From contig VBOJ01000050.1 of NCBI GenBank assembly GCA_005877775.1, forward strand, positions 1 to 60,013: a DNA stretch of 60,013 bases, read 5' to 3'. This stretch comes from Nitrospirota bacterium (GTDB taxonomy: Bacteria > Nitrospirota > Nitrospiria > Nitrospirales > Nitrospiraceae). This document shows, one piece after another, positions 52,905 through 57,155 of the stretch; position 1 is the stretch's first letter; each line of letters begins with the position of its first letter. A model generated the notes under the pieces. The model was not told the origin of the DNA, made no database searches, and was given only the letters and a program-made list of their open reading frames with translations. The translations under genes were made by a program, and so were the position numbers.

Positions 52905-53222
52905 ATGATTGGACGGGTCGTCGTCGCGGTCATTCTGATCATGACATTTGCAGCCCCGGTGTTCGCAGGTCCCAAATCCCCTGGCGTTGATCGCCGGGAA
53001 CATAAACAGAAGCAGCGCATCAAGCAAGGGATCAAAAGCGGAGCACTGACGAAGGAGGAGGGCAGAGCCCTGACAGCCGAACAGAAAGCGATCCGTGCCA
53101 AGGAGCGCGAGATGAAGTCAGACGGATCACTGACGAGAGAGGAACGCAAAGAACTGCATCAGGACCTCAACGAAGCCAGCAAGAACATTGCGGAGCAGAA
53201 GCACGACGCGGAAACGCGGTAG
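52905..53222 (+). CDS. small secreted Lys/Glu/Arg-rich protein
   Basis: AAAGGAG RBS, signal peptide MIGRVVVAVILIMTFAAPVFA, and a charged helical remainder. Confidence 0.55.
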   Translation: MIGRVVVAVILIMTFAAPVFAGPKSPGVDRREHKQKQRIKQGIKSGALTKEEGRALTAEQKAIRAKEREMKSDGSLTREERKELHQDLNEASKNIAEQKHDAETR

Positions 53223-53263
53223 GCGAAAGGGGTGAGGCGTTAGGCGAAACCCCGGAAGAGAGG

Positions 53264-53306
53264 AAGGGCGGCCGCTTCAGACGAGGCAGCCGCCCTTCGT
53301 GTTTTT
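53264..53306 (+). terminator. rho-independent terminator
   Basis: 9-bp stem AAGGGCGGC/GCCGCCCTT followed by CGTGTTTTT. Confidence 0.7.
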
Positions 53307-53332
53307 CTGGTGTTGGTCTTAGGCGAAACGGG

Positions 53333-53349
53333 GGTTGGTGCCGAAGCCG
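53333..53349. repeat. 17-bp direct repeat of the tRNA-Leu(CAG) 3' end (att-like island boundary)
   Basis: GGTTGGTGCCGAAGCCG is identical to 56822-56838. It covers the last 14 nt of the tRNA plus 3 flanking nt. Confidence 0.85.
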
Positions 53350-53365
53350 AGAAGGAGAAGACCTG

Positions 53366-54004
53366 ATGCGAGTTTCGATTGCAGGCCTATTCCTAGTTGT
53401 TTTCCTTTCACACGGATGCATGGGAAGGTTTAGCAACATTGTGGACGATGATCCCATTACGGATGGTTTTCGAAAGTCTCTTCCGCCTCCACACGCACGT
53501 ACGGTAGTCTGGGGTGGACATCCTAGCGCTACTGGAACAGCAGTGAGTTGGCTACAGAGACAAGGCCTGCGAATAGTCGAGCGGTCCAAATTACAGAAAG
53601 TGCTTGACGAGCAAACTATTCGCCTCACTCACACGTCTGATGACGAGGCGCAGGTTCTGCGGGTAGGCAAGCTTCTCGGCGCTGAGGTCGTGGTATTCAT
53701 AGATTCCCCAGTGACTGGTGGCCATCAGAGTTCTGGCGGGGCCTACGGGAACATCGCTGCGTCGGGGAGTGCTACCGTGTACAGCACGAGCATCTGGGTA
53801 CGTGGTGTGGATATTGAATCGGGGGAGGTTTTGTGGAGTGCTACGGCTCGCTATCCTGAATCCTTCTCAAACCTTGACGACATGCTCGTGCGGTTGACCT
53901 GCCATGCCCTCGCGACTGCTTGGGGCTTTCGGCAGGTTGGAGAACCTGAAACAGTACTATTTCCAAAGGACATGTGCTTGGCAGGTTCAGATTCAGGCAG
54001 GTGA
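53366..54004 (+). CDS. putative lipoprotein, function unknown
   Basis: GAAGGAG RBS and a signal peptide with Cys (FLSHGC). No confident family call. Confidence 0.45.
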   Translation: MRVSIAGLFLVVFLSHGCMGRFSNIVDDDPITDGFRKSLPPPHARTVVWGGHPSATGTAVSWLQRQGLRIVERSKLQKVLDEQTIRLTHTSDDEAQVLRVGKLLGAEVVVFIDSPVTGGHQSSGGAYGNIAASGSATVYSTSIWVRGVDIESGEVLWSATARYPESFSNLDDMLVRLTCHALATAWGFRQVGEPETVLFPKDMCLAGSDSGR

Positions 54005-54172
54005 AACGATGAACTGCCTTTCCTTGGGGCTCATGGCTGAGAGGCTCGATTCCAAAGAGACCGTGAAAATTGAAGAAGTGGTGGTCTCTCACATGTTCGA
54101 GATCGCCGCCACCGGCCGACCACCCGCTCACTCCAAACAGTCAAGTCACGCTGCCGCCGCTCCCGTAATTCC

Positions 54173-54811
54173 TCATCGCTGCTTCTGGTTCATGAAATAC
54201 TGGAACCAAAGGAAACCGAGGTCCGACGAATTATTCGCAGCCTGAGCTTCCAGTGAGTCGATCTGTAACTGCATTAGTTCCATCTGTCGTTCCAACTGCC
54301 TCGCTGCGCTATCACTGTACCCCGCGACGGGAGCCCTAGCACTTGCGCGGCTCGCACTGTCTTCATATACCCGGAGCCTCTCCCTGTCGAGCACTTCATA
54401 AAATGCTTGAAGCGCAGGGTCTTGGACAGATCGCGGTGGAGGCTCGACATCTAAACACTGAGGCGGGATTGTCCCCCGTTGCTTAAACTCTTCCCAACAC
54501 CCTTGGGAGCTATAGACTTTGGCCCGCTTGCTGAACCTGTCCACCTTTTCCACGAAGTCCTTGTACCAGGCATCTGAATACTCGACATCTGATGGAGACG
54601 GAGTCGGGACATTCTTTAGCAAAACATGCTTACGACAATGGAGCGGGATTACCTTCCCTTGCTCTGCCTGTTCCAAGCACCACTGGGACTCGTAGCTTAG
54701 GATCGACTGACCTGGCGTGAGCTGGTTAAGGCGTTCCTCGAACGTGCTAGCTCCTAATGGTGTCGCGCTTGTCACAACAAGTAATAGGATAAGTGAACAT
54801 AGTTTACCCAT
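54173..54811 (-). CDS. secreted Cys-containing hypothetical protein
   Basis: Start taken at MGKLCSLILLLVVTSA (signal peptide). The ORF extends to 54928. Confidence 0.45.
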   Translation of the reverse strand: MGKLCSLILLLVVTSATPLGASTFEERLNQLTPGQSILSYESQWCLEQAEQGKVIPLHCRKHVLLKNVPTPSPSDVEYSDAWYKDFVEKVDRFSKRAKVYSSQGCWEEFKQRGTIPPQCLDVEPPPRSVQDPALQAFYEVLDRERLRVYEDSASRASARAPVAGYSDSAARQLERQMELMQLQIDSLEAQAANNSSDLGFLWFQYFMNQKQR

Positions 54812-54995
54812 ACCCCACCCACCTTTCCACCCGCTTGGGGCGTCCTTTCTCGTCTGGGGTGATCGTCTCCTCGATCTCGCCACCAGCAATAGTGAGGGCC
54901 GCATGAGTCCTTCTTTATGGGTGAGCATGCACTGCGCGAGGGGACTAGTTTGGATTCAAGTCAATACTTATGCTATCCCCCAAACGTAGGGGGGC

Positions 54996-55229
54996 ATGTT
55001 AGGAAAGGACGGAGCCGCAATCAAAGCGAGCCGGGTCACGCGAAGAAGAACGGAATTCTTACGGACAGTTGTGCGGGTGTTGAGGAAGGTCCAGAGAGCC
55101 AAGCGCCGGGTTGCTGAGGAGCAACAGAAGCAGCAGCGCCGGCAAGCCCTCACGGCCTACCGTGAGTCGAGGCCAGACCAGGGAATAGGCGCTCTCTTTC
55201 TGCATTCCCACTGCATCCACCGTGCATGA
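54996..55229 (+). CDS. possible small basic protein
   Basis: 77-aa Arg/Lys/Gln-rich ORF with no motif. Weak call. Confidence 0.2.
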   Translation: MLGKDGAAIKASRVTRRRTEFLRTVVRVLRKVQRAKRRVAEEQQKQQRRQALTAYRESRPDQGIGALFLHSHCIHRA

Positions 55230-55457
55230 AATTGTTGAAAATGTGTCGAAAACTGCACAACGCTGGACAAGCTATGCTTGACAATCAATGCAACCTTAAG
55301 GGAAACTTCTGTTTACTCCCCCCTGGCAGTTGTAGAGGAGGAACGCGGCGTCGGCTGCGGTATGAACTGTTAGAATGTACGGAGTAGTCTAATCGTTCAA
55401 GAAGGCTGGCATCGCACACCATGATTAAGGCGTTAGAAGCGGAGGAGTCCCTTCATC

Positions 55458-56162
55458 TTGAAAGTTCGCCTCCAAAACAAGCCTGACATCAGAGAGCTCC
55501 CAGCTTACTCCATCACGGAAGCTGCTCATTACCTTCTAATTCCGCCGTCTACCCTTAGGTGGTGGGTAACCGGGCGACGTTACGATAGGGGGATTCTTCG
55601 CGTGTCAAAACCCATTATTGAACTGCCCGAAGAAGATGGCAAGGGGCTTTCCTTCATGAATCTGGTTGAGATCCATGTTCTAGATGCGATTCGAAGAAAA
55701 CATGACATAGCCCTAAATAAAGTCCGCAAGGCTCTTCAGTATCTCGGACATCACCTCCCTTCTAGGCATCCTTTGGCCGAACGAGAGTTCGAGACCGATG
55801 GAATTAGCCTGTTCATTGAACAGTATGGCAAGTTAATCAACATTTCCGAGGAGGGGCAGCTTGCTATTCGTGAGTTATTGGAGGCTCACCTTAAGAGGAT
55901 CGAGCGAGATACCTCTGGCCTTCCGATAAGACTCTACCCATTCACTAGAAAGAGAGCACCTCAAGAACCCATGGCCGTCGTTATCGATCCGTATGTCTCC
56001 TTCGGTCGACCCGTTCTAGTGGGTACGGGTATTCCGACAGCGGTGATCGCTGCACGTTATAAGGCCGGAGAATCGGTGGACGATCTAGCCGACGACTATG
56101 GTCGCAGCCGCGAAGAAATCGAAGAAGCTATCAGATGCGAGCGCTTCCGCGAAGCCGCCTAA
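55458..56162 (+). CDS. VapB45-like antitoxin (N-terminal HTH plus C-terminal DUF433)
   Basis: ITEAAHYLLIPPSTLRWWV (HTH) and DPYVSFGRPVLVGTGIPTAVIAARYKAGESVDDLADDYG (DUF433 pattern). The start is a non-ATG codon. Confidence 0.7.
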   Translation: MKVRLQNKPDIRELPAYSITEAAHYLLIPPSTLRWWVTGRRYDRGILRVSKPIIELPEEDGKGLSFMNLVEIHVLDAIRRKHDIALNKVRKALQYLGHHLPSRHPLAEREFETDGISLFIEQYGKLINISEEGQLAIRELLEAHLKRIERDTSGLPIRLYPFTRKRAPQEPMAVVIDPYVSFGRPVLVGTGIPTAVIAARYKAGESVDDLADDYGRSREEIEEAIRCERFREAA

Positions 56163-56561
56163 CGAGCCCATCCTCTTCTTAGATCGATCCCTTGGGAAAA
56201 AGCAAATAGCCTCTGCCCTGCGCGCAGAAGGTTCTGATGTCCGAGTTCATGACGATCATTTCCCAAGTAACGCCAAAGATGAGTATTGGCTGACGGAGGT
56301 TGGGCAAAGAGGGTGGATTGTTCTGACAAAAGAGACCAAATCCGTCACCATCCAGTTGAACGCGACGCTTTAATGGCTGCCGGAGTAGGCGCTTTTATTC
56401 TACCGAGAGGTAACACGACCGGGTCAGAAATGGCCAGAGCGTTCGTAAAGGCTTTACCTAAAATTAAAAAATTCATCAGGAAACACTCTCGCCCTTTCAT
56501 CGCTCGGGTCACGAGTGGAGGATCTATAACGATGTTAGACGCAGGGGGGCGGAGACCTTAA
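56098..56561 (+). pseudogene. VapC45/PIN-like toxin gene, frameshifted
   Basis: The N-terminal half (ILFLDRSLG...GWIVLTKE) is in one frame to 56373. The C-terminal half (IRHHPVERDALMAAGVGAFILP...FIARVTSGG) is in another frame to 56561. The shift lies within AAAAGAGACC near 56329-56336. Confidence 0.6.
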
Positions 56562-56566
56562 GCCAT

Positions 56567-56755
56567 CTACTGAGGAGACACGCCTTCCTGAAATTTTCTC
56601 CACTCCCACGGCGGGACCGGGTCGGGATCTGCCCAAAGCCTCTGTTTGGCGTCCCTCGCTTCCTTTTCTAGCCCTGCCAGCACAGTATCACCCGGCGCAT
56701 AATGTCTGTACCACCACGCCAGCCCTGCCTTGACGAGCAGGTAGAAGACGCTCAG
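56567..56755 (-). pseudogene. C-terminal fragment of a thermonuclease (staphylococcal nuclease-like) gene
   Basis: A 62-codon frame, LVKAGLAWWYRHYAP...EKEARDAKQRLWADPDPVPPWEWRK, preceded by an in-frame TAG and lacking the N-terminal catalytic part. Confidence 0.55.
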
Positions 56756-56824
56756 CTAGCCGACCAGGCTGTATCTTTAGCCAGAGAGGATGGCCGAAGT
56801 GGTGGATGGAATAGAGAAGGAGGT

Positions 56825-56911
56825 TGGTGCCGAAGCCGGGATTTGAACCCGGACACCCGTGAGGGCGCTAGACCCTGAATCTAGTGCGTCTGCCAGTTCC
56901 GCCACTTCGGC
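56825..56911 (-). tRNA. tRNA-Leu, anticodon CAG
   Basis: Acceptor GCCGAAG/CTTCGGC; anticodon stem CTAGA/TCTAG with loop TTCAGGG; long variable arm; T-arm CCGGG-TTCAAAT-CCCGG; encoded CCA. Confidence 0.9.
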
Positions 56912-56917
56912 ACGTGC

Positions 56918-57155
56918 GGGATGCTGAAATAAGCCTACAACTGCGTTCTCGCTTCGCTCAAGCCCTCAACGTACCAACAAAGAGTACGCCTCGGGGTTTC
57001 GCTTGCTGCGGCCTTGTTCTAGCCTTATTTGAGCATCCCTAAGAATTATTTCCTCAAATTTGTTCGCGGTCGCTCACTCCCTTCAACCTACGAGAAGAGT
57101 ACGCCTCGGATTCTCGCTCGTTGCGGCCTAGTTGGAAGCCATTTTGAGCAGCCCT
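56918..57155. repeat. two ~95-nt imperfect direct repeats plus an inverted 20-mer, immediately upstream of tRNA-Leu(CAG)
   Basis: R1 (56945-57040) and R2 (57062-57155) are about 75% identical by eye. 56918-56937 is the reverse complement of 57020-57039 (18 of 20). Confidence 0.7.

Follow-up and report, generated by a model that had tools for sequence, protein, structure and literature searches.

An integrase-less 3.47-kb islet at the 3' end of a Nitrospirota tRNA-Leu(CAG) gene, very probably the remnant of a site-specifically integrated element

In a 60,013-nucleotide stretch of a Nitrospirota bacterium (GenBank assembly GCA_005877775.1, contig VBOJ01000050.1, positions 1 to 60,013; hereafter the window), the 3' end of the gene for tRNA-Leu(CAG) adjoins a 3.47-kb segment that encodes a CsgG-like lipoprotein, an orphan secreted protein, an antitoxin-type regulator and the remains of a toxin gene and a nuclease gene, and that is enclosed by two copies of a 17-bp direct repeat. 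A preliminary description, drawn from the letters of the window, had read this segment as an immobilised, decaying island. Having compared the locus with its counterparts in relatives, we conclude that the segment is very probably the remnant of a mobile element that integrated site-specifically into the 3' end of tRNA-Leu(CAG).

Repeat, tRNA target and empty sites

The 17-mer GGTTGGTGCCGAAGCCG occurs at two sites in the window, 53333-53349 and 56822-56838, and the count remains at two if up to two mismatches are tolerated, against 0.03 chance matches expected from dinucleotide-preserving shuffles; the direct repeat thus stands as first described. Its right-hand copy had been equated with the last 14 nt of tRNA-Leu(CAG) plus three flanking nucleotides, and the ARAGORN and Rfam models of the tRNA bear this out: in the orientation of the tRNA the 17 nt read CGGCTTCGGCACCAACC, composed of CGGCTTCGGCACCA (the final 14 nt of the tRNA, with the CCA encoded) and ACC. 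The identity block sits at the extreme 3' end of the tRNA (acceptor stem and CCA), and outside the 17 nt there is weak similarity alone, without extension into the tRNA body (repeat family D3). The left-hand copy lies in direct orientation downstream of the tRNA 3' end, as expected of a displaced 3' fragment. An Rfam scan of 52.5-57.5 kb returned nothing beyond tRNA-Leu(CAG).

To place the locus among its relatives, we made use of about 160 related loci (given below by their L numbers), for which species-representative genomes were scanned with the AAA protein and metagenome contigs with PyrE. The AAA_11 neighbour protein places the window in a Nitrospiraceae (Nitrospira-like) soil population, and the ancestral gene order at the locus is L9 - AAA - tRNA-Leu(CAG) - p136 - pyrE - p160 - rhodanese. 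A more distant Nitrospira (L021/L108) keeps this order with 25 nt between the tRNA end and the p136 stop codon, and is empty. Base-precise empty sites are present in two metagenome contigs, L096 (94% amino acid identity in AAA, 92-93% DNA identity in the flanks) and L098 (94.7% DNA identity, the contig beginning within the 3' half of the tRNA). Both read ...CGGCTTCGGCACCA-ACC-G/CTCGTTTCGCTTAAGATC..., which is the left flank of the window placed directly after the tRNA (junction form tRNA-ACC-CCCGTTTCGCC), and both contain the 17-mer once, as the tRNA end itself. Compared with L096 and L098, the insertion has its breakpoints precisely at the 17-bp repeat; because the attB junction of L096 and the proximal and distal junctions of the window line up in this way (Table 1), the insertion is bounded exactly by the repeat. 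We judge a 17-nt repeat too short for an assembly mis-join; moreover, as their flanks diverge from the window by 5-8%, L096 and L098 represent distinct strains. The comparison with empty sites that the preliminary description had proposed therefore joins the tRNA end straight to the flank at 53.3 kb, and its claim of site-specific integration into the tRNA 3' end gains support from true empty sites in close relatives.

Different JGI and ENA samples yielded at least eight contigs, assembled independently of one another, that match the window at 99.7-99.9% identity over the locus. The island is present in all eight same-species contigs that span the locus, with 5-9 single-nucleotide polymorphisms and no indels; an assembly artefact can therefore be dismissed as the source of the structure, which is fixed in the population as sampled. 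Apart from these same-species contigs, none of the more than 160 related loci contains any of the island proteins.

The segment also differs in composition from its surroundings, as its reported AT-richness had implied. With a GC content of 0.531 it ranks below every other 3.47-kb block of the window (mean 0.591, standard deviation 0.018), and GC content at third codon positions is 0.45-0.58 in the island open reading frames (ORFs) versus 0.62-0.73 in the flanking genes. The motif TTAGGCGAAAC and the terminator previously assigned to the left boundary are both present, but they do not belong to the island: they are part of the native flank, and relatives with an empty site have them as well.

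Three copies of TAGGCGAAA (GTAGGCGAAAGGGG, TTAGGCGAAACCCC and TTAGGCGAAACGGGG) lie on either side of the p136 terminator hairpin at window positions 53219-53330. They, too, are native flank and are conserved in L096 and L098; across the window the motif is weakly above chance (three copies versus 0.58 expected, with two of 100 shuffles reaching three).

Inside the island, 16 nt from the tRNA-proximal core, the plus-strand sequence GCCGAAGTGGTGGA (56793-56806) reproduces, with one mismatch, the first 14 nt of tRNA-Leu, inverted relative to the tRNA gene. Shuffles predict 0.03 matches for it, and its remaining matches are the two tRNA-Leu genes alone. It could be a candidate attP-arm or integrase-binding repeat, or the relic of an inversion; bearing on the latter idea, the tRNA is inverted in L022/L145 and in L065.

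In one same-species contig, L007, 57 bp are missing at about 6560-6570 (window 56812-56868), a stretch that takes in the 3' half of the tRNA and the attachment (att) core and is framed by two TCTA microhomologies. The gap either stems from an assembly artefact or marks a rare deletion variant in which tRNA-Leu(CAG) would be inactive. Several contigs of independent metagenome assemblies end at the tRNA, four of them at its 3' end (L014, L019, L051, L053) and two at window position 56920, just upstream of its 5' end (L009, L010). Such breaks fit strain heterogeneity downstream of the tRNA or a collapse of the tRNA or repeat in the assembly graph. Island polymorphism was considered as the cause of the L009 and L010 breaks and rejected, as collapsed tRNA or repeat nodes explain them better.

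Table 1. Features of the tRNA-Leu(CAG) locus in the window. Junction sequences are given in the orientation of the tRNA 17-mer.
Feature	Position	Strand	Evidence or sequence
Native terminator hairpin of the p136 gene (flank, outside the island)	53268..53305	+	Conserved at the L096 and L098 empty sites
Distal 17-bp copy (attR core), displaced 3' fragment of the tRNA, adjoining the original flank	53333..53349	.	L096 alignment: native flank resumes directly after
Inserted DNA, 3472 bp between the repeats	53350..56821	.	Low GC; absent from close relatives L096 and L098
CsgG-like lipoprotein, 212 amino acids, ribosome-binding site 8 nt upstream	53366..54004	+	Pfam CsgG E=9e-9
Orphan secreted protein, 212-251 amino acids by start choice	54173..54928	-	Signal-peptide-like MGKLCSLILLLVV from 54811
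HTH_66 + DUF433 antitoxin-type gene (VapB45-like), intact	55458..56162	+	Pfam HTH_66 E=1.2e-6, DUF433 E=3.7e-12
PIN_10 toxin pseudogene, one frameshift near 56335	56098..56561	+	Split ORFs 56098-56373 and 56286-56561
SNase-like nuclease fragment, 5'-truncated, C-terminal 62 amino acids and stop	56567..56755	-	Pfam SNase positions 67-107 of 107 only
tRNA-proximal 17-bp copy (attL core)	56822..56838	.	Native at the L096 and L098 empty sites
tRNA-Leu(CAG), intact, integration target (attB-bearing gene)	56825..56911	-	ARAGORN; Rfam tRNA 52.3 bits
attB junction (L096)			TCAAATCC-CGGCTTCGGCACCAACC-GTCGTTTCGCTTAAGATC
tRNA-proximal junction (window)			TCAAATCC-CGGCTTCGGCACCAACC-TCCTTCTCTATTCC
Distal junction (window)			TCTCCTTCT-CGGCTTCGGCACCAACC-CCCGTTTCGCCTAAGACC

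Cargo genes and the missing integrase

No integrase is found in the island, as had been noted before. None of its ORFs matches Pfam Phage_integrase, and tblastn with five local queries (three full integrases and two fragments from relatives' islands at the same tRNA) revealed no significant integrase remnant: inside the island no match falls below E~2.6, and the best match in the window (E=0.027) lies outside the island. Pfam and PHROG identify no integrase, transposase, phage or conjugation gene in the island, and neither these profiles nor the plasmid and phage DNA collections point to phage or conjugation genes that would explain movement between cells. PHROGs and PADLOC gave nothing meaningful, and the island DNA has no match in the plasmid and phage collections. 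The search of mobile-element databases that had been suggested for the island thus came back without matches in plasmid, phage or viral collections; the viral contigs contain neither the CsgG-like protein nor the circular attP junction, which we reconstructed as GAGAAGGA-GGTTGGTGCCGAAGCCG-AGAAGGAG.

The cargo departs in part from its initial description. Both secreted proteins had been taken for orphans, which holds for the 251-amino-acid protein, without a match in Pfam, NCBIfam or PHROG and, among 1.84 billion representative proteins, matching itself and one further sequence marginally (E=7.7e-4, 35% identity over a short stretch). It does not hold for the 212-amino-acid lipoprotein: Pfam CsgG recognises it, and there are about 98 homologues (60-70% identity for the best), which sit in unrelated accessory settings beside toxin-antitoxin genes. 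NCBIfam gave no matches for the island proteins. The supposed VapB45/VapC45-like toxin-antitoxin pair consists of an intact antitoxin-type gene and a toxin that is a frameshifted pseudogene. The HTH_66 and DUF433 protein has more than 4000 homologues, and a 68%-identical one from Nitrospira bears the NCBI name "putative antitoxin VapB45"; with its huge size and a best match of 73%, the family is uninformative for tracing the island. The PIN_10 gene overlaps the antitoxin-type gene. Its first ORF covers positions 1-60 of the 84 in the profile and the joined frames cover 1-83 (67.8 bits), and the frameshift is common to all eight same-species contigs. The nuclease had rightly been called a fragment, given the portion of the SNase profile that it retains, and its truncation lies within about 70 nt of the att core.

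The closest homologue of the CsgG-like lipoprotein on a long contig (L175, 3886-4575, 68% identical) has an SNase-like fragment about 1.8 kb away (6347-6514), with DUF3987 and DUF4145 genes nearby. Among the contexts of the CsgG-like homologues L175 alone also has such a fragment, a hint at joint transport of the lipoprotein and the nuclease by some mobile element.

The frameshifted toxin and the truncated nuclease bear out the decay of the island; its immobility, claimed together with the decay, is something that we infer. How the integrase may have been lost is suggested by the nuclease gene. To include the lost N-terminal two thirds, the gene would need to extend across the att core and the tRNA, which means that a stretch of DNA between this gene and the tRNA-proximal core has been deleted. 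Because an integrase occupies that tRNA-proximal position in L048, L088 and L094, the same deletion offers itself as the fate of the integrase: in the simplest history, one deletion would have cost the island both its integrase and the 5' portion of the gene for the nuclease.

An integration hotspot in Nitrospirales

Across about 70 Nitrospirales loci, and in essentially all of those recovered, tRNA-Leu(CAG) has kept its linkage to the AAA_11 gene upstream. The DNA downstream of the tRNA is hypervariable, with a distance from the tRNA to pyrE of about 0.8 to about 9 kb, and this interval is a recurrent hotspot of integration and gene turnover across Nitrospirales. Two families of tyrosine integrases occur there, and the direct repeats of the tRNA 3' end that go with them measure 45-53 nt (family A) and 38 nt (family B). 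A Pfam-confirmed integrase directly beside the tRNA 3' end is combined with a bounding repeat of 38-53 nt in L048, L088 and L094, and full-length integrase homologues found by tblastn adjoin the tRNA in L061, L050, L038 (two copies), L039 and L018, for all of which no bounding repeat was found. Partial integrase matches were obtained by tblastn in L022, L024 and L033, and weaker, Pfam-only fragments in L031. Integrase-less islets with repeats of 15-22 nt are present in L058, L068, L075, L100, L101, L105 and L106, and each of the near relatives L097, L099, L100 and L012 carries a different insert.

The two integrases of L038 (11826-12929 and 19896-20978) belong to family B, are about 77% identical to that of L094 and lie 8 kb apart downstream of a single tRNA-Leu(CAG); islands thus seem to stand in tandem in this complete Nitrospirales chromosome.

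On the other side of the tRNA, between its 5' end and the AAA gene, the window contains an element of about 120 nt in tandem duplicate (56912-57040 and 57045-57155, minus strand), with terminal inverted repeats of about 17 nt (GGGATGCTCAAATAAGGC...GCTTATTTCAGCATCCC) and without a match in Rfam. Many Nitrospira have it upstream of tRNA-Leu(CAG) too, and in L113 and L118 it occupies other intergenic sites (copies at L027 1866-1986, L076 11665-11784, L096 896-1016, L021 11605-11703, L113 1831-1953 and L118 1062-1132). In L027 its nucleotide identity is 96%, although the adjacent AAA protein is just 64% identical. The element looks like a dispersed repeat of the miniature inverted-repeat transposable element (MITE) or repetitive extragenic palindromic (REP) kind and may explain contig breaks near tRNA-Leu(CAG).

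Origin of the islet and comparison with known systems

If the segment is what remains of an integrated element, the attP site of that element would have recombined with a 17-bp attB (CGGCTTCGGCACCA plus ACC), presumably through a tyrosine integrase. This integration would have restored a complete tRNA, with a 17-bp piece of the old tRNA end displaced to the far side of the insert, and would have parted the tRNA from its original neighbours, namely the terminator, p136 and pyrE. A later deletion on the tRNA-proximal side may have eliminated the integrase together with two thirds of the nuclease gene, counted from its 5' end, after which the PIN_10 toxin would have been frameshifted and the antitoxin-type gene left intact. 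The residue would be the present islet with its antitoxin-type regulator, CsgG-like lipoprotein and orphan secreted protein, which is now fixed and probably immobile.

Other readings of the locus were weighed against the same data. The 17-mer at 53333 might resemble the tRNA end by chance or for a functional reason, for instance as part of a terminator, with the low-GC segment being ordinary variable DNA. The repeat is indeed short, and its GCCGAAG part is self-complementary acceptor stem; however, shuffles predict only the 0.03 matches given above, the breakpoints relative to L096 and L098 match the repeat to the base, and the empty sites contain a single 17-mer. This reading is hardly conceivable, and a chance origin of the repeat was rejected on the shuffles and the L096 breakpoint alignment. 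A different history would dispense with integration in this lineage, the tRNA, island and flank having been imported together by homologous recombination, or an old island having been precisely excised in L096 and L098. The rapid turnover at the hotspot, where relatives that are 82-94% identical carry different inserts (L097, L099, L100, L012), would suit such a history, and an integrase that excised the island would produce an empty site exactly like the observed one. Yet both nearest outgroups and the distant one are empty, the island genes occur nowhere else at the locus and their composition is deviant, which makes import or excision very unlikely; moreover, the same original site-specific event would still be needed, so that the history would change but not the nature of the feature.

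Cis-mobilisable elements (CIMEs), known from the ICESt1/3 elements of Streptococcus thermophilus, are flanked by att sites and are devoid of integrase and transfer genes. They are thought to arise by decay, or by accretion beside an integrase-bearing element at the same site, and their mobilisation in trans has been demonstrated. That the islet is alive as a CIME-like cassette with functional att sites, moved by an integrase encoded elsewhere or on a co-resident island, is nevertheless very unlikely. In its favour, both 17-bp repeats are free of changes in every strain, at least seven further lineages have integrase-less islets with 15-22-nt repeats of the tRNA 3' end beside this tRNA, and L038 has tandem integrase copies there, as the accretion model requires. 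But short repeats persist passively at small divergence, so that their intactness proves nothing, and the pseudogenes indicate neglect rather than maintenance; in addition, the 60-kb contig contains no integrase or helper, the viral contigs no attP junction and the same-species contigs no empty site. We consider it similarly improbable that the small integrase-less islets in general, those of the window strain and of at least seven other Nitrospirales lineages, are att-flanked cargo cassettes shuffled in trans by the two resident integrase families through accretion and mobilisation of the CIME kind.

Some observations also weigh against the remnant of a site-specifically integrated element, which we nevertheless prefer. 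The recombinase is inferred, as neither an integrase nor a fragment of one is detectable in the island, and neither of the local integrase families can be assigned to the islet because its 17-bp block is shorter than their repeats of 38-53 nt. No intact relative of the island was found through homologues of the antitoxin, the CsgG-like lipoprotein and the orphan protein or in the plasmid, phage and viral collections. Among the eight same-species contigs spanning the locus none is free of the island, and neither excision nor polymorphism is thus seen within the species. Finally, parsimony and composition are the grounds on which the event is polarised as an insertion here and not as a precise excision from the related loci.

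The islet, borne by an uncultured soil population of Nitrospiraceae, matters little on its own. Its value lies in annotation, in that 53350-56821 can be marked as accessory DNA and two pseudogenes flagged, and knowledge of the hotspot could aid the delimitation of islands and explain contig breaks in metagenome-assembled genomes of Nitrospira.

The ends of genomic islands in tRNA genes (tDNAs) are marked by an intact tDNA and a displaced tDNA fragment (Islander; Hudson, Lau & Williams 2015, PMC4383910), and tyrosine integrases are the sole recombinases known to target tDNAs (PMC4383910). The islet resembles the Islander islands in its intact tRNA or tmRNA gene at one boundary, here tRNA-Leu(CAG), in the displaced 3' fragment in direct orientation at the other (53333-53349), in its foreign composition, in the uninterrupted site of related genomes (L096, L098, L021 and L108) and in its target at the 3' extremity of a tRNA-Leu including the CCA. 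It differs in its very small size (3.5 kb), in an identity block of 17 bp and in that Islander requires a gene for a tyrosine integrase inside the island; without this gene the islet would be filtered out as inactive or damaged, and it is therefore to be regarded as a damaged or inactive island and not as an active one of the Islander type. With CIMEs it shares flanking att sites and the absence of integrase and transfer genes, although it gives no sign of mobility and has no known helper. Type II modules of the VapBC45 (DUF433/PIN-like) kind have the arrangement seen here, an HTH_66 and DUF433 gene followed by an overlapping PIN_10 gene. The antitoxin with its helix-turn-helix and DUF433 domains is present in the islet, whereas the adjacent PIN-like toxin gene is not intact, its domain being complete only across two joined frames; because of this frameshift the module is at best an orphan antitoxin.

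Further counterparts are the islands of L048, L088, L094 and relatives, which use the same tRNA-Leu(CAG) on the same side and whose repeats likewise run a few nucleotides past the CCA. In contrast to the islet they have a tyrosine integrase beside the tRNA and repeats of 38-53 nt that reach back to the anticodon or T arm, and they have no genes in common with it; the island of L048 contains genes for a phage-type capsid-protease fusion and an AAA_25/DnaB-like ATPase, whereas the islet is free of phage genes. Whereas the GC content of the islet is low, that of these islands is below the flank (L048), about equal to it (L094) or above it (L088). Taken with these systems, the islet is an ordinary, textbook tRNA-integration scar, a further case of a well-known kind.

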